NCBI GenBank assembly: GCA_050123155.1
Contig: JASFHP010000008.1
Coordinates: forward strand, 15,186-79,185
Reading direction: 5' to 3'
Source of the DNA: Candidatus Bathyarchaeota archaeon
GTDB taxonomy: Archaea > Thermoproteota > Bathyarchaeia > Bathyarchaeales > Bathyarchaeaceae
DNA: 64,000 nt
In this document: positions 44,396-63,535 of the stretch, piece by piece
How the letters are laid out: every line of letters starts with the position of its first letter
How positions within the stretch are numbered: position 1 is the first letter of the stretch
Program-made: the position numbers and the translations under genes
The notes under the pieces: generated by a model
Databases searched by the model: none
The model's input: the letters and a program-made list of their open reading frames with translations, nothing else
Told to the model about the DNA's origin: nothing

Positions 44396-45358
44396 CTACT
44401 CCAGATTCAACACTTCTTTCAGAACGCCTTGATAAGGACCAAGCTTGCCTCCGTAATTTCCAGCCGTAATCTTCACAACGCCCGGAACCTTGATTGCAGC
44501 CATTATTCCCACACACATAGCCTTTTTCACAGTTTTCTGGTTCAAACCGTTTATTACAATCTCAAGGACACTGCCAACATCTTCAGAAAGTTTAGAGTCT
44601 GGTACCAGCTTTCTGAGAGTGGGACAGTATGGATGATTGGTTGATGCTGGAAGCTTGTAATTCAGTGACCCCACCTTAGATCCTGCCCTGCAGAGACCAC
44701 CCGGGAAAGGCATAATTGCCCCTCTGATACTCTTGCTGATTGCTTCTTTTGCTTCCTCTGATGCTTTAAGCGCAGTCTTCCAGTCCTTTGCTAGGATGAG
44801 CATGTTTCCGCTGGCAACAGCCCTCATGATGCCGAAGTCGTCTTCAACAATAAATTCGCCCTCCATAACTGGAATGCGCCAAACTTTTCTTCCCCCAACC
44901 TCACCCTCCTTTTGGAAGCCATCTCCGAAGAGGCGCAGGCTTCTCCCTATCTTCACTCTGCGTTTGGCTTTAGGTAGGCCGTCGAAGGCTGCTGTTGTTG
45001 GGCACGTCATGACGCACTGTCCGATTCTTAGACTCATCTGGTGCTTGAGTGCACCTCTTGAGCTGTGGTAGATTTGGATAATGGCTCCTGGGCGTCCGTC
45101 TGGTGTTTCTTTGGGGGATACGAGAGTTTCTACTGCCGCTTCTGCTGGTGACATGATGATTGACGATGCGAAGCCAGCTGCGGTTCTTGCCGCGATTAAA
45201 GCCCATTTCTCGTTAGCGGCTGTTATCAACACTCTGCCTGCCCACATGGGAAACATTTCTGCGAAAGTATCCTCTATTCTAACTGTTTCTTTTCGTCCAG
45301 GCACCTTTATAATAAAATCATCCTTTTCTTTTTTTACAACTTCAAGTTTTGCCATCAT
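44396..45358 (-). CDS. ftr: Formylmethanofuran--tetrahydromethanopterin formyltransferase
   Basis: IEDTFAEMF, TPDGRPG, RIGQCVMTCPT, GSKVGS, ITAGNYGGKLG. Start is probably 45358 or 45355. Confidence 0.93.
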   Translation of the reverse strand: MMAKLEVVKKEKDDFIIKVPGRKETVRIEDTFAEMFPMWAGRVLITAANEKWALIAARTAAGFASSIIMSPAEAAVETLVSPKETPDGRPGAIIQIYHSSRGALKHQMSLRIGQCVMTCPTTAAFDGLPKAKRRVKIGRSLRLFGDGFQKEGEVGGRKVWRIPVMEGEFIVEDDFGIMRAVASGNMLILAKDWKTALKASEEAKEAISKSIRGAIMPFPGGLCRAGSKVGSLNYKLPASTNHPYCPTLRKLVPDSKLSEDVGSVLEIVINGLNQKTVKKAMCVGIMAAIKVPGVVKITAGNYGGKLGPYQGVLKEVLNLE

Positions 45359-45847
45359 GTTTTGCTCCGTTAAATTTTGTTTTGTTCCGCTCCGAAACAC
45401 ATCGTAAACCGATTCGAGAAGTTCTCATCTTCATTTACACTTTTAGATGTTACGGTATTTTGTGACGGTGATTTTTGTTGTTCTGCAAAGAAAATTGTTT
45501 CAGAGAACATTGATGAATCCAACCACTCACTATGAATCAAACAGTCCTTCATGTATCTGTTGTTCTAGTTCCTCGATGAGTGGCATGGTCACGATGTAGT
45601 ATGTATCGTGTTTCAGCGATAATGTTGTTCTTTTGGGAGAGGAAGTTGGTTTTAACCGAAAAATAAATAAAGTGACGGTATATGGACGGTATATGGAGAG
45701 CGGATTAAGAGGTAACGTGTCTTTTCTCGGAGAGAGAAACAAAAGGAAATGTGTGAACGCTTGAAAGAATTACGAAATTTCGGGAACAGGGGAGAAGTAA
45801 CCTCGAATACGCGAGAAAAGGCGCTAAAAAGCTTACGGAGGTTCTAG

Positions 45848-48800
45848 ATGGGGAGACAGGTTAGCAAACAAAAAAGGCGCTTGGCGGAAGAAGATGCGGA
45901 GAAAGTGAGAGAAGATTATGTACAGAAAATGAGAGATAATTATCCTCTTATTATCCGCACCCTTATGCACGACCTCATTTTTAGTGTTGATAAAGACGGC
46001 AATCTTGTGTTTTTGAATGATGCAGCCGTTGAATTCTTGGGTATGCCAAGTGAAGAAATCATAGGAACCCATTTCGTAGATTACTTGTATCCTGAAGACG
46101 TAAAAAAAACACAGGCCGCCCTTCAAGAGATAATCAAAAGCAAGGGTCAGGTTAAAGGTTTAATCATCAGAGTGAAGAGTCCAAGGGGAGCAAGAAAAGT
46201 AGCATTGAACGCAGTTGCAATATTTGACGAAGAAGGAAATCATGTGGGGATACAAGCAACTGGCAAAGACCTCACAGACCTCCTGCGCACTGAAGAAGAA
46301 CTGGAGCAGTCACGTAGCCATTTTCGACGGTTGTTCGAAGTTCTGGTGGACCCCGTTGTAATCGTGGACATGAATGGAAAGATTTTGGAACTCTCACAAT
46401 CGGCGGAAGAAATACTGGAATTCCCAAGAGAGGATCTTGTTGGAAAGCAATTTATGGAAAATGATGTTGTCACGGATAAAAGCAAAGCTATGATGATGAA
46501 AACTCTGGAGAAGCTGAAAAAGGGTGAGTATGCCCCACCACACACTATTGAGGTGGTCACAAAAGACGGAAAGAAGCTGCTTTACGAGTCGACTCCTACG
46601 AAGCTAATGTACAAAGGCGAACCAGCAATCTTAGGTATATTTCGCAGCATTACTGAACAGAAGAAGGCTGAGGAGAAACTACAAGCTTCTGAAATGCGGT
46701 TTAAGTATTTTCTAGAGAATGCTCCTGAAGCAATTTGGGTGCAAGATCTTGTTGGCACTTTTCTTGATGGAAATAAACTGGCAGAGGAGCTGACTGGCTA
46801 CAAGAAGGAAGAATTGATTGGAAAAAGCATGTTAGAGATGAATCTTGTTCCATCAGAATATATACCAATAGCTATGGAGGCGTTCAAAGCAAACAAACCT
46901 GGAGAAATAAGTGGACCAAATGAGTTAGAGTTGATAAGAAAAGATGGGAGCTTAGTTTCTGTTGAGGCATCCACTATCCCCGTTGAAAGGGACGGAAAAA
47001 TCGAGATTATTGGCATAGCAAGAGACATCACCGACCGCAAGAATGCGGAAGAGGCGCTGAAAGAGAGTGAGAAGCGGTCTAGAGAGTTGAGTGATTTACT
47101 TCCTGAAGTTGTTTTTGAAACGGATGCGACTGGGCGGCTTACATTTGTGAACCAGATAGCGTTTGATCAGTTTGGTTATTCTCAGGAGGATTTTGATAAA
47201 GGTTTGAATGCTGCTCAGATGTTGATTCCAGAGGATCGAGACAGAGCCATGGAAGAAATTGATAGAGTATTGAGTGGAGCCGACGTAGATTTTACAGAAT
47301 ATACTGCATTGAGGAAAGACGGTAGCACCTTTCCGATTATGATCCACTCCACTCCTATTATTCGTGGAAATATGCCTGTGGGATTAAGAGGAATAATCGT
47401 AGACATCACTGAACGCAAAAAAATGGAGAATGTGCTGAAGGAAAGTGAGGAAAAGTATAGGACTGTCTTTGAAGGCGCCACTGACGGCATCGCTGCTTTA
47501 GATCCTAAAACAATGAAAGTTATTTTCACTAACCCCAAAATGACCGAAATAACGGGTTATCCTCTTGACGAGTTGCTCAACGCAACTATTATTGACTTTG
47601 TTCCCAAAGATGAACTGTCTTTGGTAATACAGCAGTTCCAGAACCATGTGGGAGGAAAGAGAGACCTTACTAGATACATACCCGTTGTGAGAAAAGATAA
47701 AACAAAGATCTATTGCGACGTCCGTTCTAAGTTCCTAAATATCGGAAACCAACAATATTTGATGGCATTTGTCAGAGACGTTACTGAACAGAAGAAGGCT
47801 GAAGAGGCACTCAAAGAGAGTGAGAAACGATTCAGAGAGCTGAGTGAATTGCTTCCTGAAATTGTTTTTGAAACAGATGCGACTGGGGAGCTCACATTTG
47901 TGAACAAAGCTACGCTTGATTCTACTGGTTATTCTCAGGAGGATTTTGATAAAGGTTTGAATGCACTTCAGCTGGTGGTTGCCGAGGATCGAGATAACAT
48001 CAAGAAAAGTATTGGTGAGCTATTGAGTGGCAAAAAGATAGGCACTAGTGAGTATACTGCATTGAGGAAAGACGGCAGCACATTCCCAATTATCATACAC
48101 TCCAATTCCATCACTCGCGAAAATAGAGTTGTGGGCATGAGAGGACTAATTGTAGACATCACCGACCGCAAGAGAGCGGAAGAGGCGCTCAAGGAGTCGG
48201 AGGAACGTTTCCGGAGTACACTTGATAACATGATGGAAGGTTGCCAAATTGTCGATTACAACTGGCGTTATCTCTACGTTAATGATGCAGGTGCAAGACA
48301 TGCTCATTTGGCGAAGAAAGATTTGCTTGGCAAAACAATCATGGAAACGCAGCCGGGAATTGAAAAGACAGAATTGTTTGCGGTCTTACGCAGATGCATG
48401 AACGAACGCGTGCCCGCACACATGGAATATGAGTTTTTGTATCCCAACGGTGAAAGAAATTGGTTTGAACTCAGCATTGAACCCATGCCTGACGGCATCT
48501 TTGTAATATCAATAGACATTAACGACCGCAAGCGTGCAGAAAAAGAACTGATTCGTCTATCTAATGCTGTAAGAATGTCTAACGATAGCATAGTGATCAG
48601 TGACCTTGATGGAACAATTCTGGACGTAAATGAGGCTAGCCTGAAAATGCACGGCACTGACGACAAAAGCGACCTGATTGGAACCAACGCCTTCGGTCTT
48701 GTCGCTCCTGAAGATCAAGAAAAAGCGTTAGCAGGCATGAAAGAGGTGCTGGAAAAGGGGTACGTCCAAAGTCGAGAGTATCAAATTGTCACCAATGATG

Positions 48801-50419
48801 GCAGCAAAATTCCTGTGGAGATGAGCACAGCAATTATGAAAGATGCGAATGGCAAACCAATAGGATTTGTTTCCGTAACCAGAAACATCACAGAGAGGAA
48901 GAAGGCTGAGGAGGCACTCAAAGAGAGCGAAAAGAAGTATAGAGAAATGATTAATGGAATGAACGACGTGGCTTTGGTTCTTGATTTTGATACGAACATT
49001 ATTGATGCTAACCAGACTGCAGTTGATGTTTTGGGTTACTCTATGGAAGAGTTGCTTTCTATGAAAGTCCACCAATTCGATGCTAGTCTAACCGCGAAAG
49101 AAATAAAAGGTCTTGCCGAAAAAATGAAAACCAATGGATTGGTGGTTTTGGAGACAACGCACACCACCAAAGACGGAAGGACCTTTCCAGTGGAGGTTAG
49201 CGCCAGTCCGGTGACTTATCAGGGAAAACCTGCGCTTCTGAGCATTGAAAGAGACATCACCGAACGCAAGAAAGCAGAAGAAGCTTTACGTAAATCAGAA
49301 GAGGCGGCAAGGCGTCTGTTAGAGTTTCAAAACAAAATTATTGACACCGCTACTGTGTGGGTTAATCTGATTGATCCAAAGGGAAATGTAATCTTATGGA
49401 ATCGTGCGGCAGAGCTTGTTTCTGGCTACTCTCGTAAAGAAATTATTGGAAATAACAAGATATGGGAATTGCTCTACCCTGATCCTGACTACCGTACCAA
49501 GATTTTTTCCGTCGGAAAAGAAATCACTGAAAAAGGAAAACGAATAGAAGACTTCTATTCGACCATCAGATGTAAAGATGGATCAGTGAAGACTATTTCA
49601 TGGTATGCCACTAACATACGGGATGAAAAAGGAGAGCCAGCAGGTAGCATTTCCATCGGGGTTGACGTAACAGAAAGGGAGAAGGCTCAGCAGGCAATAA
49701 ACAATGCCTTGGCTCTGTTGAGGCAGTCGAACAGGGAGCTGGAGAGTTACACGTATGTTGTCTCTCATGACTTGAAGGCACCCCTCAGAACAATACGTTC
49801 CTTCGGCACCTTCCTTTTAGAAGACTATAAAGACAAACTAGATGAGACAGGCAAAGACTATCTACATAGGATGATTAACGCATCTTCCCATTTGAACACC
49901 ATGATTGAAGACTTACTCGTTCTTTCGCGTGTTGGACGAAAATTCACTGAACTCGAAAAAGTGGACCTGAACGAGCTCCTGAAGGAAATCATATCCGACC
50001 TTGAAGCAACAATTAAGGAACGCAAAGCAAAGGTTATCGTCGACAAACTTCCCGTCCTATCCGCCCAGAAAGTATGGAACAGACAATTGTTTATGAACCT
50101 AATCAGCAACGCCTTAAAGTTCAACGAATCCAAAACCCCGAAGATCGAAGTATTATACGAAGAAAAACAAAACGATCATCTGTTCAAGGTTCGGGACAAT
50201 GGAATAGGCATCGAAAAAAAGTATCTAGAGCGCATATTCAATCTTTTCGAGAGAGCACCCACAGACAAGAAGTATGATGGAACTGGAGCTGGATTAGCAA
50301 TCTGCAAAAAGATTGTTGAGCAGCTCGGAGGAAAAATCTGGGTTAAAAGCACACTCGGTAAAGGCAGCACATTCATTTTCACAATACCCAAGGAGTTGAA
50401 ACAAACAGAGGAGACATAA
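45848..50419 (+). CDS. Cytoplasmic sensor histidine kinase with 10 PAS/PAC modules (Cph1-type HisKA)
   Basis: Ten PAS modules, most ending in D(I/V)T(E/D)RK-like linkers. SHDLKAPL, NLISNALKF, DNGIGI, GTGAGL. No TM segment. Confidence 0.93.
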   Translation: MGRQVSKQKRRLAEEDAEKVREDYVQKMRDNYPLIIRTLMHDLIFSVDKDGNLVFLNDAAVEFLGMPSEEIIGTHFVDYLYPEDVKKTQAALQEIIKSKGQVKGLIIRVKSPRGARKVALNAVAIFDEEGNHVGIQATGKDLTDLLRTEEELEQSRSHFRRLFEVLVDPVVIVDMNGKILELSQSAEEILEFPREDLVGKQFMENDVVTDKSKAMMMKTLEKLKKGEYAPPHTIEVVTKDGKKLLYESTPTKLMYKGEPAILGIFRSITEQKKAEEKLQASEMRFKYFLENAPEAIWVQDLVGTFLDGNKLAEELTGYKKEELIGKSMLEMNLVPSEYIPIAMEAFKANKPGEISGPNELELIRKDGSLVSVEASTIPVERDGKIEIIGIARDITDRKNAEEALKESEKRSRELSDLLPEVVFETDATGRLTFVNQIAFDQFGYSQEDFDKGLNAAQMLIPEDRDRAMEEIDRVLSGADVDFTEYTALRKDGSTFPIMIHSTPIIRGNMPVGLRGIIVDITERKKMENVLKESEEKYRTVFEGATDGIAALDPKTMKVIFTNPKMTEITGYPLDELLNATIIDFVPKDELSLVIQQFQNHVGGKRDLTRYIPVVRKDKTKIYCDVRSKFLNIGNQQYLMAFVRDVTEQKKAEEALKESEKRFRELSELLPEIVFETDATGELTFVNKATLDSTGYSQEDFDKGLNALQLVVAEDRDNIKKSIGELLSGKKIGTSEYTALRKDGSTFPIIIHSNSITRENRVVGMRGLIVDITDRKRAEEALKESEERFRSTLDNMMEGCQIVDYNWRYLYVNDAGARHAHLAKKDLLGKTIMETQPGIEKTELFAVLRRCMNERVPAHMEYEFLYPNGERNWFELSIEPMPDGIFVISIDINDRKRAEKELIRLSNAVRMSNDSIVISDLDGTILDVNEASLKMHGTDDKSDLIGTNAFGLVAPEDQEKALAGMKEVLEKGYVQSREYQIVTNDGSKIPVEMSTAIMKDANGKPIGFVSVTRNITERKKAEEALKESEKKYREMINGMNDVALVLDFDTNIIDANQTAVDVLGYSMEELLSMKVHQFDASLTAKEIKGLAEKMKTNGLVVLETTHTTKDGRTFPVEVSASPVTYQGKPALLSIERDITERKKAEEALRKSEEAARRLLEFQNKIIDTATVWVNLIDPKGNVILWNRAAELVSGYSRKEIIGNNKIWELLYPDPDYRTKIFSVGKEITEKGKRIEDFYSTIRCKDGSVKTISWYATNIRDEKGEPAGSISIGVDVTEREKAQQAINNALALLRQSNRELESYTYVVSHDLKAPLRTIRSFGTFLLEDYKDKLDETGKDYLHRMINASSHLNTMIEDLLVLSRVGRKFTELEKVDLNELLKEIISDLEATIKERKAKVIVDKLPVLSAQKVWNRQLFMNLISNALKFNESKTPKIEVLYEEKQNDHLFKVRDNGIGIEKKYLERIFNLFERAPTDKKYDGTGAGLAICKKIVEQLGGKIWVKSTLGKGSTFIFTIPKELKQTEET
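47173..47964 (+). repeat. Intragenic duplication between PAS4 and PAS6
   Basis: A 39-nt exact match, 47173-47211 = 47926-47964 (offset 753 bp), within more broadly similar modules. Confidence 0.85.
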
Positions 50420-50420
50420 A

Positions 50421-50861
50421 ATGCCACAAAAATATTCGATAACTGAACAACCGATTCTTCTAGTGGACGATAGCCCCGATGACATAATGATAGCCAAAAG
50501 AGCCTTTGCAAAATCGCAGATTCACAACAAAATCTACGTGACTCATGACGGTGACGAAGCCATACAATTCCTGCGAAAAGAAGGAAAATACAAAGACATG
50601 CCAACAGCGGGCTTGGTTATACTAGATTTAAACATGCCTAAAGTTGACGGCTTCGAAGTGCTGGAAACAATAAAAGGTGATGAAAAACTGAAGAGCATTC
50701 CAATAATAGTGTTGACTTCTTCAAGTAGACCTGAAGACATAGAACGAGCCTACAAACTAGGATGCAACAGCTTCATCGTGAAACCCGTCAGCTTTGAAGA
50801 CTTCATTGAGGCTGTGATAGAGATAAAACGTTACTGGTTAAGCCTCTCAAAAATACCGTAA
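50421..50861 (+). CDS. Stand-alone response regulator (Rcp1-like)
   Basis: LLVDDSPDD, ILDLNMP, LTSS, FIVKP, YW. Confidence 0.93.
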   Translation: MPQKYSITEQPILLVDDSPDDIMIAKRAFAKSQIHNKIYVTHDGDEAIQFLRKEGKYKDMPTAGLVILDLNMPKVDGFEVLETIKGDEKLKSIPIIVLTSSSRPEDIERAYKLGCNSFIVKPVSFEDFIEAVIEIKRYWLSLSKIP

Positions 50862-50881
50862 AAAATGGAGATGTAAAAAAT

Positions 50882-51898
50882 TTGGTTGAATTAAAAATCC
50901 GAATACTATATGTTGAAGACAACCCTGACGACCAATTGATCCTAAAGCGGTCACTCAAAGAAAAAATGCCCATCAATTACGATCTGATAACTGCAGATAC
51001 AGCAACAAAAGGCTTAAACAAGATTGAAAAAGAAAACTTTGACCTGCTCATTTCGGATTACAGGCTACCGGACATGACAGGCATCGAATTAATCCAAGAG
51101 CTAAAGAAAAGAAGCCTCAAAACCCCAACCATTCTGCTTACCAGCAAAGGAAGCGAAAACATTGCAGTTGAAGCTATGAAACTTGGCGTCAAAGATTACA
51201 TAGTCAAAGAAGACCTCGCCTCAAAACGTCTAGTAGACAGCATCAACGCCATACTGCTGAAGGCAGCCTTACCTGACACCGTGGACCTTGAAACAGCAAA
51301 ATCTATAGCAACTCTCTTCGACAAAACCCCAATCATACACATCGAATCAGTCAACACTTTAATGTCTAATCCAAGAAGCGAAATCCCCACGGAACAACTG
51401 ACTTCAACATTAAGAACTCTTGCAGACATAGACATTGTAGATGAAGAGCCCTCACGCTCAGTAATCGCATGCCCAGACTGCGGTTTCCTCGACTTTGCCC
51501 TCTACGTGGAGTGCCCCGAATGCGAAAGCACCCAAATGAACAAAGAAGAAGCCTTGGAACATTTTGACTGCGGCAACATAGATTTCAGATCCAAATTCGA
51601 TAAAGGTGAGGGCAGCCTAGTTTGCCCCAAATGCGGAAAAAAGCTGAAAGTAATAGGAGTCGACTACAGGAAAATCGAAAACTGGTACAGATGCTCAAAC
51701 AAACACTTCTTTGGTCAACCCAACCTCAAGTTCGTGTGTTCCAAATGTAATGGACGTTTCTCACTGGAAGAAACAAAGGTAGACACGCTCCACAACTACA
51801 AGTTAACAAAGAATGGTAGTCAGCTATTGAAACTCGGCGTGAAAGCCACCAAATTAAAAGAAAAAAGCAAAGACAAAAAATCCAGCCAAGAAACCTGA
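50882..51898 (+). CDS. Response regulator with a TackOD1-like multi-Zn-ribbon output domain
   Basis: REC domain (VEDN, SDYRLPD, DYIVK), then CPDC, CPEC, EHFDCG, CPKC, YRC..KHFF and CSKC. Confidence 0.85.
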   Translation: MVELKIRILYVEDNPDDQLILKRSLKEKMPINYDLITADTATKGLNKIEKENFDLLISDYRLPDMTGIELIQELKKRSLKTPTILLTSKGSENIAVEAMKLGVKDYIVKEDLASKRLVDSINAILLKAALPDTVDLETAKSIATLFDKTPIIHIESVNTLMSNPRSEIPTEQLTSTLRTLADIDIVDEEPSRSVIACPDCGFLDFALYVECPECESTQMNKEEALEHFDCGNIDFRSKFDKGEGSLVCPKCGKKLKVIGVDYRKIENWYRCSNKHFFGQPNLKFVCSKCNGRFSLEETKVDTLHNYKLTKNGSQLLKLGVKATKLKEKSKDKKSSQET

Positions 51899-59665: not shown

Positions 59666-60682
59666 ATGGATCAACGCAAAATCATGTCTCTCGGAAGGTC
59701 CTCACTGGTTATCTCGTTGCCCAAACACTGGACGAAACTGAACGAACTAAAGCAAGGTGATGTTGTTTCCTTGGCAATTCAGCGAGACCATTCTTTAGCC
59801 ATTTTCCCGGGAACAGGAAGTAAAAAAGGTGTCAAAGAAATAATTCTTCACATAGATCCAAACGAGAAAGCCAAAACAATTAAGCGACACATCATTTCGT
59901 GCTACTTAAATGGATATTCAAGCATCAAGCTTTTTTCAAAGAGCATCTTTCCTGTTTTCCAACAGAAGGCAATACGTAACATAGTAAGGATACTTTACAT
60001 GAGAATCATGGAGTGCGACGCTAAGAGCATGCACATAGTAACGTTAATGGACGAAACACAAGCGTCCGTGACTTCAGGAATACAACGGATGCATATCCTT
60101 TCGACTTCGTTGTTTCAAGATGTGTTAACTTCCCTGAGGACTCAAGATCAGTTATTGGCAAAGACAGCTTTCCAATTAGATGACGATGTTGATCATTTCT
60201 CTTTTTTCATGCTACGTTTAGTCAAAAGAGCAGCTTTGGAACCAGCATTGGCAAACAAGTTGGATATAGAGATAAGTGACTGTCTTGATTATCAAATGTT
60301 TATCCGCCTAATTGAACAAGTCGCCGATTACGCTACCAAAATAGCAAAAAATCTAGTGCAGTTAGGCGCAGAAAAACTAAAAATCTCTGAACCACTGATT
60401 AAACTAATGGTAACTGCAGGCAAGAATGCAAATGCACTCTATAACCAAGCGGTTAAGGCTTTTTTTTCAAATGACGCTGAAATGGCTGAAGGAATAATTG
60501 AACGCGGAAAAATCATCGACAAATCTGACAAAGAAATTGCGACTTGGTCTTTCTTGCATGAAAAGAGAAACCCAGTAATAATTTGTGCCACATGTTCCAT
60601 GCGTGAAAGTATAAAAAGAATAGCGGAAATTGGACGTGAGATCGCACTCTATACGATCCATCGTTCTTTTAAGCCAAAATAG
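59666..60682 (+). CDS. AbrB-PhoU-PhoU family regulator
   Basis: RKIMSLGRSSLVISLPKHW (AbrB), YLNGY, DDDVD, IEQVADYA, SIKRIAE. Confidence 0.9.
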   Translation: MDQRKIMSLGRSSLVISLPKHWTKLNELKQGDVVSLAIQRDHSLAIFPGTGSKKGVKEIILHIDPNEKAKTIKRHIISCYLNGYSSIKLFSKSIFPVFQQKAIRNIVRILYMRIMECDAKSMHIVTLMDETQASVTSGIQRMHILSTSLFQDVLTSLRTQDQLLAKTAFQLDDDVDHFSFFMLRLVKRAALEPALANKLDIEISDCLDYQMFIRLIEQVADYATKIAKNLVQLGAEKLKISEPLIKLMVTAGKNANALYNQAVKAFFSNDAEMAEGIIERGKIIDKSDKEIATWSFLHEKRNPVIICATCSMRESIKRIAEIGREIALYTIHRSFKPK

Positions 60683-60730: not shown

Positions 60731-62470
60731 CTACTTCTTTTTATCCGCGTAACTAAGAGTTAATTCAAGTGCAGCTGGGCGAATCGTTTTTTGCAGTAGT
60801 TTTCTTGCAAGTTCCATAGCGAAGTTGTAGTTGTATGTGCCCTTTCCAATTCTCCGGACTTCTTTCAGCATCTCAATCTCTACTTCGTGTTTCAGTCGTC
60901 CTATCGCAAGTGCACCAACACCGTAAATCCCTGGCATAATTTCACGCATGTCGTCGTGTGGCTTTATTCCATCAACTCCTAGAGGTGGAATGGCGTTGAT
61001 GTCAGCCAAAACTTTGAGGAGTTTCACTTTCTGTAGCATCTCTTTGTCTATGATTTGGACTCCGCGGGTTCCCGCGCAGAAGATGACTTCGGCTTTCTTA
61101 AAGAGTTCAAATTTTTTCTCAGGTGTAGGTGCAAAGAATCCTTGCACTTGCGCTCCGTATCGGGTGTTTAGCTTTTCGGCGAGTTCCGCTGCGTATTCGT
61201 CACCGTTCTCACGGTTCGGATTCAAACTAGCAATCGTGACATCGCAACCAAGCTTTGTCAATAAGACGGCTACTATTCTGCCGACCGAACCTGTTCCAAA
61301 AATAGCACACGTTTTATCGCCTAAACTTCCGAGTTTCTGGGAAGATATGGCGTCTTGGACCTTCGCTACTGCTGCTGCCGCTGTGGTATATGCACCGGCA
61401 GGATCTACTATTACACTCGCGTTGAATGGCGGGAACATGGCTTTTGTTATGACTTTTGTTATTTCCTCTGCAAGGTCGATGTCTTTTCCGCCTATGAAAA
61501 AGGTGGTGCGCCTTACTCCTTTTGGTCCTCTTGAGAAAACGGCGTCCTCAACTATCTTCTTGGCGTCTTTAGAGTTCACGTTTTCGTAGGGTATTACTGC
61601 ATTGTATCCAGCGTCGTAAGCCATACACACGTCAAATGGACTAGCTATTTGGTCTGAGTCTAGGAAAAATAGCAGATAAGGCAATTCTATTGCAGTCTTT
61701 TTGATTGTTGGTTTTACTTTGATTTGCATAGCCTGTAATAGTTCATTAATTCCTTTTAAGTTAGAGGTTTCCTTGATCGGCAAAATCACTTCTTTCGAGA
61801 CTTTGATCGTTTCAACCGTCACGTTAAATGATTCTAAAAGCTTTGTTACGCCCTTGACATGCTCAGGGCTGCTTATGTGAATGCTTACAAGTTCTTCCTT
61901 CGATTTTGTGTTTCTAGCGTTATCCAAAAGTTTCATTACTATCCAGCTTTCCCGTACCGAAAAATTAGCTTCCTTTTCTTGTTTTTCCAGCTCACTTTGT
62001 AGGTATTGGCCATAGGCGATCAAATATTCCTCTTCAGTACTGAGGTCTTTGCTTCGCCCTTTTTCCTTGAGGCGCTCATCCAGCGCTTGGATTATTCGGT
62101 CTCTTAATTCTTTGTTCTCATCCAAAATTTGGGCTATGTAGCTTCTGGCATTTTCGTCAATATCAACCGGGTGAAAGGGTATTTTGTTTCTCTTAAAGAG
62201 TTTTGATATGTCATTGCTTTCGTTAAATTCCTTATGTGAGCGCAAACCAAGCTCTTCAGTTGCAAACTCTGGCTTTATTTTTTTGATAAGCTTTTCTAAG
62301 AAACTCGTTAGAGCTATTGATGGTTTATGGAGTACACTCAGGTCACTAGTGGGTTTGGTTTTCGGTTCTATTAGCCAAAACGGTTCGTTATACTCTTTTT
62401 CAACTATTAACACTGTTAATTTCTTGTCTTTCAAGGGTTTGATTTGTAATGTTTCCAATTTCCTCACCAT
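60731..62470 (-). CDS. MtdB-like NAD(P)-dependent methylene-H4MPT dehydrogenase fused to an N-terminal TraB/ChaN/EreA-like domain
   Basis: C-terminal part: SPFDVCMAYDAG, FSRGP, FIGGKD, PPF, DPAGAYTTAAA, FGTGSVG, ADINAIPPLG. Extra N-terminal region of about 260 aa. Confidence 0.85.
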   Translation of the reverse strand: MVRKLETLQIKPLKDKKLTVLIVEKEYNEPFWLIEPKTKPTSDLSVLHKPSIALTSFLEKLIKKIKPEFATEELGLRSHKEFNESNDISKLFKRNKIPFHPVDIDENARSYIAQILDENKELRDRIIQALDERLKEKGRSKDLSTEEEYLIAYGQYLQSELEKQEKEANFSVRESWIVMKLLDNARNTKSKEELVSIHISSPEHVKGVTKLLESFNVTVETIKVSKEVILPIKETSNLKGINELLQAMQIKVKPTIKKTAIELPYLLFFLDSDQIASPFDVCMAYDAGYNAVIPYENVNSKDAKKIVEDAVFSRGPKGVRRTTFFIGGKDIDLAEEITKVITKAMFPPFNASVIVDPAGAYTTAAAAVAKVQDAISSQKLGSLGDKTCAIFGTGSVGRIVAVLLTKLGCDVTIASLNPNRENGDEYAAELAEKLNTRYGAQVQGFFAPTPEKKFELFKKAEVIFCAGTRGVQIIDKEMLQKVKLLKVLADINAIPPLGVDGIKPHDDMREIMPGIYGVGALAIGRLKHEVEIEMLKEVRRIGKGTYNYNFAMELARKLLQKTIRPAALELTLSYADKKK

Positions 62471-62632
62471 TGTTTTCGTTTGTTAACTTTTGTTTGAGGT
62501 CATGTTTTCTTGGAAAAATATATATTTTTTGCCTATATCGTATATAAGAGTTAATAGGATATATACAGAGTTGCGAGATACGAGCCAAATTATATAAGCC
62601 TCTTCATTGCTTGATGCTTAATACATGATCAG

Positions 62633-63535
62633 GTGGTTCTGATGGACGAATCTTTACCTAAAATAAAGATAGGTGTTTTCAAGTGTGGCAACGTCGGCAC
62701 AGCTCCCATATTTGAACTTCTTCTCGACGAACTTGCACAACGAAAAGACATCACCGTTCGCACAGTAACTACTGGTGCAAAAATGAGTCTAGAAGAAGTT
62801 AAAGATGCTCTTCCCAAAATTTTTGAATTCGAACTTGATCTTCTCGTTCTAATCTCTCCAAACCCTGCAGTTTCGGGTCCTGCTGCAGCCAGAAGTATGG
62901 CTCTAGCAAAGGGAGTACACACAATTGTGATGTCAGACGCTGTAGCAAAGCGAATGACGAAAGAACTTGAAAAGCAGGGATTGGGCTACATAGTTGTTCT
63001 TGGCGACCCCTTGATAGGAGCACGAAGACAATTCTTGGACCCTGTAGAAATGGCACTCTTCAACACAAACATAATCAAAATACTCGCAATAACCGGAGTT
63101 TTCAGACTGATACATCAAGAGGTCGACAGAGTAATAGCTGTTCTAAAGGAAGGACTAGCCGTTCGTCTACCGAGATTGGTGATAGATACAGAAACAATTC
63201 GTGACAATTCGGACTTTGCAAATCCTTACGCAAAAGCCAAAGCTATGGCTGCCTATCACATAGCGTCTAAGATTCCCGAGATCAACACAAAAGCTTGCTT
63301 TATGGAGAAAGAAAGTGAAAAATTCATTCCTCTTGTTACTTGTGCACATGAAATGGCTCAGGTAGCAGCTAAATTGGCTGAAGAAGCGAGAGAGATCGAG
63401 AAATATTCTGACAGTTTGGTTAGGAAACCCCACTCAAAGAAAGGAGAGCCCTTAACAAAAACCAAATTAATGCAGTCACCCACGTTTGATGATGAACTAT
63501 ACAAGAAATGGCTCAAAACTTTGCCAACCAACTGA
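62633..63535 (+). CDS. mtd: F420-dependent methylenetetrahydromethanopterin dehydrogenase
   Basis: KCGNVGT, LLLDE, GAKM, SPNP...GP, IGARRQFLDPVEMALFN, FANPYAKAKAMAA, RKPH. Confidence 0.9.
   Translation: MVLMDESLPKIKIGVFKCGNVGTAPIFELLLDELAQRKDITVRTVTTGAKMSLEEVKDALPKIFEFELDLLVLISPNPAVSGPAAARSMALAKGVHTIVMSDAVAKRMTKELEKQGLGYIVVLGDPLIGARRQFLDPVEMALFNTNIIKILAITGVFRLIHQEVDRVIAVLKEGLAVRLPRLVIDTETIRDNSDFANPYAKAKAMAAYHIASKIPEINTKACFMEKESEKFIPLVTCAHEMAQVAAKLAEEAREIEKYSDSLVRKPHSKKGEPLTKTKLMQSPTFDDELYKKWLKTLPTN

Follow-up and report, generated by a model that had tools for sequence, protein, structure and literature searches.

A domain predicted to bind F420-dependent Mtd is fused to an MtdA/B-type dehydrogenase in Bathyarchaeia

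The window analysed here is a stretch of 64,000 nt from a Candidatus Bathyarchaeota archaeon (assembly GCA_050123155.1, contig JASFHP010000008.1), and positions are given in window numbering. We studied the gene pair at 60731..63535, in which an NAD(P)-type methylene-tetrahydromethanopterin (H4MPT) dehydrogenase of the MtdA/B type lies beside the unrelated F420-dependent enzyme, Mtd. Residues 1-~255 of the NAD(P)-type protein form a separate domain that was absent from an earlier note on this DNA. This N-domain accompanies Mtd across genomes and is predicted to bind it. The reading that we rank first, and hold tentatively, is that the fusion is an inducible carrier switch, which would block Mtd and supply an NAD(P) route for the same methenyl/methylene-H4MPT step. 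A change of electron carrier had been the second idea of the earlier note.

RESULTS

The N-domain and its distribution

Both open reading frames (ORFs) of the earlier note lie where it had placed them and belong to two unrelated families (Table 1). The N-domain matches no Pfam or NCBIfam profile over cut-off and no PDB sequence, and Foldseek gave no match at E<=0.001. Its model (predicted local distance difference test score, pLDDT, 91; predicted TM-score, pTM, 0.86) has an alpha/beta core and a long helical hairpin (residues 106-187), and in the model of the full-length fusion (pTM 0.57) the orientation of the two domains to each other is not fixed. ChaN (2g5g) gave the longest structural alignment among the matches listed (146 aa, Z 8.4, root-mean-square deviation (rmsd) 5.0 A), tied in Z score with unrelated coiled coils and CbiL. 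The nearest named cluster in the Atlas is TraB/GumN (0.79). A match with saposin domains (P0136) in the N-domain search was dropped as unrelated.

Distribution was followed in a class sample of 251 genomes of the class, which are related and in some cases incomplete. Mtd was over cut-off in 160/251 and the pterin-domain family Mpt_N in 58/251. The N-domain fusion is carried by 23 of these 58, and all 23 have Mtd; the remaining 35 have unfused MtdB, and Mtd over cut-off was found in 0/35 (G176 has a weak match, E 5e-4). A profile of the N-domain itself matched 25/251 genomes, every one with Mtd: the 23 fused forms, a fragment at a contig end (G062) and a standalone N-domain (G005). Since no MtdB was found in G005, the domain has nothing to tether there. 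The fused clade has one unfused member, and it comes from a genome in which Mtd was not found (G148). Neither the N-domain nor MtdB occurs in 135/160 of the genomes with Mtd.

We also inspected the best 80 of 163 GTDB loci, a set biased to close relatives and overlapping the class sample, of which 78 are labelled Bathyarchaeia. The domain is fused in 80/80, and mtd lies directly upstream of the fused gene in 67/80, far above chance (58 co-oriented, 9 divergent). Together with the presence of Mtd in every fused-form genome of the class sample, this answers the question of conservation raised by the earlier note in the affirmative. Among the 23 fused forms of the class sample, mtd is adjacent in 11, near in 1, on another contig in 10 and not listed in 1. 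The earlier note had stressed a shared 162-bp divergent promoter. The genes are divergent here, but the gap is more likely 171 bp, and the head-to-head order, found in only 9/67 adjacent loci, is a local layout and a minority form, not the rule. We therefore rejected the divergent promoter as the key feature.

The N-domain also occurs in 37 metagenome loci, in a form that resembles a Promethearchaeota protein (P0034), the likeness from which the taxa of the distant fused proteins were tentatively assigned. Each has two N-domain paralogs. Of the 37 loci, 27 contain MtdB, in 3 cases as a fusion, 20 encode a Cdc48-type ATPase, and just 3 have Mtd within 5 kb. In L217-L249 two N-domain paralogs, MtdB, a Cdc48-type ATPase and a small ORF form an operon, and an HTH-HdrA-MvhD fusion and hydrogenase genes are arranged divergently to it. 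A contig labelled Candidatus Sulfotelmatobacter (L169), probably mis-binned, has the same mtd-fusion-phoU block as Bathyarchaeia.

Predicted complex of the N-domain with Mtd

Because the N-domain tracks Mtd across genomes, a complex of the N-domain with two copies of Mtd was modelled from our own alignments in three runs, with three controls. The scores were 0.69, 0.78 and 0.75 (median 0.75), and the best of the controls reached 0.00. The score mark is reached by 116/157 solved pairs and 2/215 mismatched pairs, a calibration that applies only roughly to our own alignments and stoichiometry. The runs share at least 76% of their contacts, with a partner pLDDT of at least 77. Searches of PDB sequences and with Foldseek brought up no solved protein related to the N-domain in sequence, which makes it unlikely that the prediction recalls a similar complex. 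Taken together, the models predict that the N-domain binds the neighbouring Mtd.

Contacts on the N-domain involve residues 4-10, 104-117 and 167-179. On Mtd (numbered from the GTG ORF) they involve residues 50-52, 77, 79-81, 103-104, 106-107, 127 and 130-131 in the N-terminal part, residues 215-216, 219-220 and 222-226 in the C-terminal part, and A35 of the second copy; the tightest are made by F223. Residues A35, K50, A130, R131, C222 and F223 are invariant in 111/111 Mtd sequences, 26 of which come from genomes without the N-domain. From descriptions of the enzyme, these residues presumably lie at the active-site cleft. This placement and the invariance suggest the mouth of the substrate/cofactor cleft as the surface that is bound. 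Contact over invariant residues fits blocking of Mtd at least as well as the passing of substrate between two active enzymes.

A carrier switch or a tethered relay

In the reading that we favour, the N-domain would bind Mtd over its substrate/cofactor cleft, the bound Mtd would be inhibited, and the fused MtdB would take over the step with NAD(P). The adjoining AbrB-PhoU protein would read a conserved 44-bp element upstream of the fused gene, with F420 shortage or redox state as the putative trigger. Such a switch would prevent the F420H2/NAD(P) short circuit that would arise if both enzymes were active at once on a single H4MPT pool. We rank it first because the MtdB form that coexists with Mtd carries a domain predicted to sit on invariant Mtd residues, appears separately regulated and has a domain that can stand alone beside Mtd, and because no genome was found to have unfused MtdB together with Mtd. 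The gap in the F420 biosynthesis genes of this genome, described below, also speaks for it.

A tethered relay is a close rival, held only slightly less probable. Here the N-domain would anchor MtdB on Mtd with both enzymes active, and catalytic methenyl/methylene-H4MPT would shuttle hydride between F420H2 and NAD(P)+. The predicted binding and the low-confidence linker of the full-length model suit such an arrangement, as does the coupling of Hmd and Mtd in methanogens; the part of PMC12350162 consulted describes that coupling as needing no complex, so a relay alone fails to explain a binding domain. Unfused MtdB could run the same loop without a complex, yet it was found with Mtd in 0/35 genomes. 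The standalone N-domain of G005, where MtdB was not found, and the predicted contact over invariant Mtd residues likewise tell against a relay. The potential of NAD(P) is -320 mV. That of F420 is given as -340 mV in the portion of PMC8498797 available to us, so exchange between the two would be near equilibrium, with a standard driving force of about -4 kJ/mol.

The earlier note had put forward an F420H2/NAD(P) transhydrogenation loop as its first idea. The conserved pair, the predicted physical link, the H4MPT genes found without FolD and the failure to find Fno, the F420H2:NADP+ oxidoreductase, agree with it. The lack of Fno, however, explains little, the supply of F420 is in doubt, another locus encodes a candidate NADH:F420 oxidoreductase, and the contact fits blocking at least as well.

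Several observations weigh against a switch. In 28/80 loci a gene like frhB stands no more than 5 kb from the pair, and in G053 the fused gene is followed by nfnAB-like genes; both fit a relay. The predicted binding is a score from a model built on our own alignments with two Mtd copies, outside the calibration; the position of the cleft and its occlusion by the N-domain are presumed; and the interface as a set is not significantly more conserved than the remainder of Mtd (p 0.16-0.22) or than the rest of the N-domain (p 0.68). Transcription running on from mtd could express the two genes together in the 58 loci where mtd stands upstream in the same orientation. Kinship among the genomes means that their counts cannot be taken as independent trials. 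The 135 genomes that have Mtd alone, and all 35 with unfused MtdB, do without the device, and plain redundancy equally explains why unfused MtdB does not occur with Mtd. The order of the two readings is close and turns on the deduced location of the predicted interface.

A broader claim may be ventured with still greater reserve. The fusion would be a dedicated protein inhibitor joined to a metabolic enzyme, one induced polypeptide that shuts the non-homologous isoenzyme F420-Mtd and substitutes an NAD route in the methyl branch of archaea's Wood-Ljungdahl pathway. The module would reach the Promethearchaeota-like (Asgard) contigs as the split operon described above.

Upstream element and regulation

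The 44-bp element scores above the best shuffled score in 77/79 GTDB loci and has a single match in the whole of this genome, where it sits between the two TATA-like boxes (that of the fused gene was placed by the archaeal promoter layout). It was found in 18/20 fused loci of the class sample, some of them shared with the training genomes; the two loci without it (G029, G053) belong to the clade that keeps a beta-B-loop Arg. It was found in 0/28 loci of unfused MtdB and 0/27 loci with mtd only. Even in co-oriented pairs the element lies after mtd and before the fused gene, so the latter appears to be separately controlled. A PhoU-like regulator is present in 72/80 of the best GTDB loci, and G005 and G053 have one next to their standalone N-domains; the AbrB-PhoU neighbour is a candidate binder of the element. 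A sigma-70 promoter scan, a model not apt for archaea, gave nothing above chance.

RNA evidence came from wetland metatranscriptome contigs only, with small word shares (0.05-0.15). In 4/4 runs the fused gene was covered by short contigs from close relatives, as was the 5' part of mtd in 2/4. A control gene drew contigs in 3/4 runs as well, so these data favour neither co-expression nor exclusive expression.

These features bear on a third reading, which we consider unlikely: that the two enzymes are independent isoenzymes, employed under different conditions or in different directions (CO2 reduction with F420, methyl oxidation with NAD(P)) and under transcriptional control only. The N-domain would then sense, scaffold or partner the PhoU-like regulator, and the predicted binding would be false or catalytically silent. 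The separate upstream element and the PhoU-like gene, which also adjoins standalone N-domains, fit this account, as do the ten class-sample genomes with the two genes on different contigs. So do the Promethearchaeota-like loci, where the N-domain goes with MtdB and the ATPase and seldom has Mtd nearby. Independent isoenzymes leave unexplained the confinement of the N-domain to genomes with Mtd (25/25) and its loss in G148, as well as a complex score of 0.75 against 0.00, given how rarely mismatched pairs reach the mark.

F420, Fno and Mer in the host

This genome is 96.8% complete and contains Mch, CdhC, Ftr and Fwd-like genes; FolD and a Pfam-level MTHFR were not found (Fhs was not searched). 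The earlier note had pointed to cof and fno genes as a check on its loop, and the outcome was mixed. Fno was not found. CofE is over cut-off, and the genome also encodes two FrhB-domain proteins and an LLM enzyme of F420 type; cofC, cofD and cofG were not found (cofH was not searched), and the cofC and cofD genes of a congener had no match here. The supply of F420 is therefore uncertain, which counts against a relay; the earlier note had named a genome lacking F420 as a ground for refuting its loop, and these mixed findings neither uphold that objection nor remove it. Across the fused-form genomes cofD occurs in 14/23 and cofE in 23/23, and in a set of 72 genomes cofE occurs in 68 and cofD in 41. 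This genome (G000) and three others (G090, G199 and G160) have cofE without cofC, cofD or cofG; one of them, the single-contig G090, has Mer and Fno. Such cofE-only genomes suggest F420 salvage. Genes resembling ECF S-components lie near several loci.

Fno was found in 73/251 class genomes, 2/23 fused-form genomes and 4/68 genomes of the order. Its absence here and in 21/23 fused-form genomes would favour a relay. The same rarity holds in the order with or without the pair, and G199 and G038 have both Fno and the pair. Because Fno is missing in 64/68 genomes of the order irrespective of the pair, its absence explains little and was rejected as the driver.

An exchange of F420 and NAD(P) electrons could be catalysed directly by another system in this genome, which also argues against a relay. 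NuoE-like, NuoF/HydB-like and NuoG-N/FrhB-fusion genes stand in a row (G000:C10:587-4476(+), L199), downstream of an unknown gene that precedes fno in G090. This cluster is a candidate direct NADH:F420 oxidoreductase. FrhB presence was set aside as a clue, being uninformative (65/72 genomes across all groups).

Mer was not found in this genome and is over cut-off in only 7/23 fused-form genomes, so we rejected the idea that the pair supplies F420H2 to Mer. At the locus where congeners (G090, G199) have mer, this genome has a 242-aa MetF/MTHFR-like ORF (G000:C3:89705-90430(-), L208:2206-2931), assigned in the Atlas (0.95) to an MTHFR-domain cluster; it had no Pfam, NCBIfam or PDB match. Within the 72 genomes, the MetF-like gene is present in 36, Mer over cut-off in 15, and both in 0. 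The MetF-like gene is likely a replacement for Mer, and the notion of a methyl branch broken for want of Mer was dropped. A passage of PMC9012536 proposes a switch from Mer to MetF in ANME-1, with relatives in Bathyarchaeota, and the gene bears on the 'Mer-less' lineages mentioned in the part of PMC7886697 at hand.

The fused dehydrogenase

PF09176 (Mpt_N) matches residues 278-358 of the 579-aa protein with 103.5 bits (cut-off 27), and a Rossmann domain occupies ~380-490. The sequence match to Methylorubrum MtdA (1lu9/6tlk; E about 1e-34) is confined to residues 266-561. Compared with MtdA, the fold model gives a target-normalised TM-score of 0.92-0.93, a Foldseek E of 2.8e-25 and an rmsd of 1.9-2.2 A over ~300 columns. 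From its sequence, the protein is probably an MtdA/B-type NAD(P) methylene-H4MPT dehydrogenase with an extra N-terminal domain; a preference for H4MPT over tetrahydrofolate (H4F) is read from context.

The Arg in the beta-B loop of MtdA and the short forms is absent, SLNP replacing GRK/TSR. The Arg after beta-B (GRK in MtdA) is one that we take to be the determinant of the NADP type. Distant members of the fused clade have Glu at the position neighbouring the missing Arg, and all unfused forms of the other clade have SR. By the rules for Rossmann domains, loss of the Arg or a nearby Glu leans to NAD, and we infer the same leaning for the fused enzyme. The Arg-bearing clade includes some fused proteins (G029, G053, P0042, P0046, P0065). 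A fused clade without this Arg could reach NAD, which would favour a relay, given that Fno does not use NAD according to a section of PMC8498797.

It is very improbable that the MtdB domain of the fusion has no catalytic activity, or is specific for H4F, and acts only as a pterin/nucleotide sensor for a regulatory complex. Its nucleotide-binding loops are altered, the fused gene of G196 is interrupted near its C-terminus (L004:846-2604; 516 + 85 aa), and MtdA accepts both H4F and H4MPT in the account excerpted from PMC9012536. Against a dead sensor stand the MtdA fold and the pterin-domain and Rossmann motifs, which are conserved across 23 fused forms. H4F specificity is at odds with the H4MPT-pathway genes of this genome (Mch, Ftr, Fwd, Cdh) and the failure to find FolD. 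The interruption in G196 is possibly an assembly error, since mch is in pieces and cofE has a stop in the same genome.

Other fusions were also seen. In G063 (C16:135244-137094) and G107 (C4:24531-26342), MtdB of the unfused type is fused to Mer in a single frame of 647-649 aa, with an frhB-like gene adjoining. In P0065 the order is reversed, with MtdB first and an N-domain homolog at residues 317-489; this fusion is likely independent because it lies on a different tree branch.

Mtd and its motif changes

The assignment of Mtd is supported by PF01993 (380 bits; cut-off 25), the NCBIfam equivalog NF002162 (375 bits; cut-off 297) and the Methanopyrus kandleri structure 1QV9 (E 3.6e-73 over residues 15-283). 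The changes DELAQR and RRQF, which the earlier note had pointed out, are indeed present. The R-to-L change (L34) is found in 74/74 Mtd sequences adjoining a fused gene and in 6/38 others. G124 and N146 are likewise found in 74/74 of the adjoining sequences and L127 in 73/74; the Q of RRQF is found in 11/112 Mtd sequences. The DEL type is present in four genomes with Mtd only and missing from nine fused-form genomes, so the motif marks lineage, and co-adaptation to the fused partner was rejected.

Gene layout and surroundings

Two starts are candidates for mtd, a GTG (gap 162 bp) and the ATG at 62642 (gap 171 bp). The ATG is preceded by AGGTG at 62631-62635 and kept in 7/9 aligned divergent loci. 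It is probably the start, to judge from the sequence, hence the longer gap.

Table 1. Features of the window around the mtd-fusion pair and in its surroundings
Feature	Position	Strand	Basis and remarks
Fusion gene, 579 aa	60731..62470	-	N-domain 1-~255, low-confidence linker 259-261, probable MtdA/B-type dehydrogenase 266-561
N-domain part of fusion gene	61706..62470	-	Alignment, structure model, complex prediction
MtdA/B-type domain part	60731..61675	-	N-terminal D-x-D...S-P-F-D motif aligned with MtdA
F420-dependent Mtd, DEL subtype	62633..63535	+	Pfam, NCBIfam; likely start ATG 62642
TATA-like box, fused gene	62517..62524	-	Sequence; columns invariant in 9 divergent loci
TATA-like box TTATATAA, mtd	62590..62597	+	Sequence; conserved in divergent loci
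Conserved AT-rich 44-bp element	62525..62568	-	Directly upstream of the TATA-like box of the fused gene; likely operator
AbrB-like + PhoU-domain regulator	59666..60682	+	Convergent with fused gene; PF01895 over cut-off, PF04014 below
Terminator-like hairpin between convergent stop codons	60689..60712		Weak: 5 such sites found against 2.9 expected by shuffling
Ftr, formylmethanofuran:H4MPT formyltransferase	44396..45400	-	15 kb away; tblastn 64% identity to NCBIfam-confirmed Ftr

Genes resembling fwdD/B/A/C follow cysS and dinB ~3 kb past mtd, just beyond the end of the window (C8:81716-85893, L204), and a second fwdA/C with mch lies on contig C18 of the same genome. At 45848-51898, the translations indicate a multi-PAS histidine kinase of 1523 aa, with two receiver-domain genes after it.

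DISCUSSION

Bathyarchaeia are abundant in anoxic sediments, and their Wood-Ljungdahl reconstructions have been made without knowing how the pools of F420 and NAD are supplied. The portion of Loh et al. 2021 (PMC7886697) that we consulted leaves the source of F420H2 open. A carrier switch, if true, would add protein-level control of carrier use, and a relay a hydride route without Fno; either would change these reconstructions. The question is directly testable, as both proteins are soluble and assays of Mtd and of the coupled reaction have been published (PMC12350162, as far as the available text goes). Searches of open-licence papers and preprints found no description of the fusion, the pair or a protein binder or regulator of Mtd. 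Both enzymes are of known families. Within that literature, the domain linked to Mtd and its predicted hold on this enzyme appear undescribed.

The domains of ChaN, TraB/GumN and EreA type bear a weak resemblance to the N-domain, with scores in the range of chance; the N-domain differs in its long inserted helical hairpin and has no Pfam match. Fno would achieve the net reaction of a relay, but as a single unrelated enzyme. Mtd of M. kandleri (1QV9) is of the same family as the Mtd studied here. It has Arg in the DERA motif where the present enzyme has Leu (DEL subtype: L34, G124, L127, N146), and the present host lacks detectable cofC, cofD, cofG and Mer.

In Bathyarchaeia subgroup 6, the unfused NAD(P)-type Mtd belongs to the same family and class as the fused MtdB; in the extract of Loh et al. 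2021 (PMC7886697) it is closer to the NADH-dependent bacterial homolog. The unfused forms that we found differ: their loops are TSR, they lack the N-domain and the upstream element, and they come from genomes where F420-Mtd was not found. MtdA and MtdB of Methylorubrum extorquens (1LU9, 6TLK) are alike in sequence and fold to residues 266-561. The protein described here has an extra N-domain of 255 aa compared with their ~290-aa stand-alone form, lacks the Arg of the beta-B loop and coexists with F420-Mtd.

A close functional parallel is the pair of Hmd and Mtd in hydrogenotrophic methanogens. There, too, two non-homologous enzymes, one of them F420-Mtd, act on methenyl/methylene-H4MPT with different carriers in one genome, and according to a passage of PMC12350162 they could together move hydride between the two carriers. 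The partner of Mtd is an [Fe]-hydrogenase in the methanogens and an NAD(P) Rossmann enzyme here.

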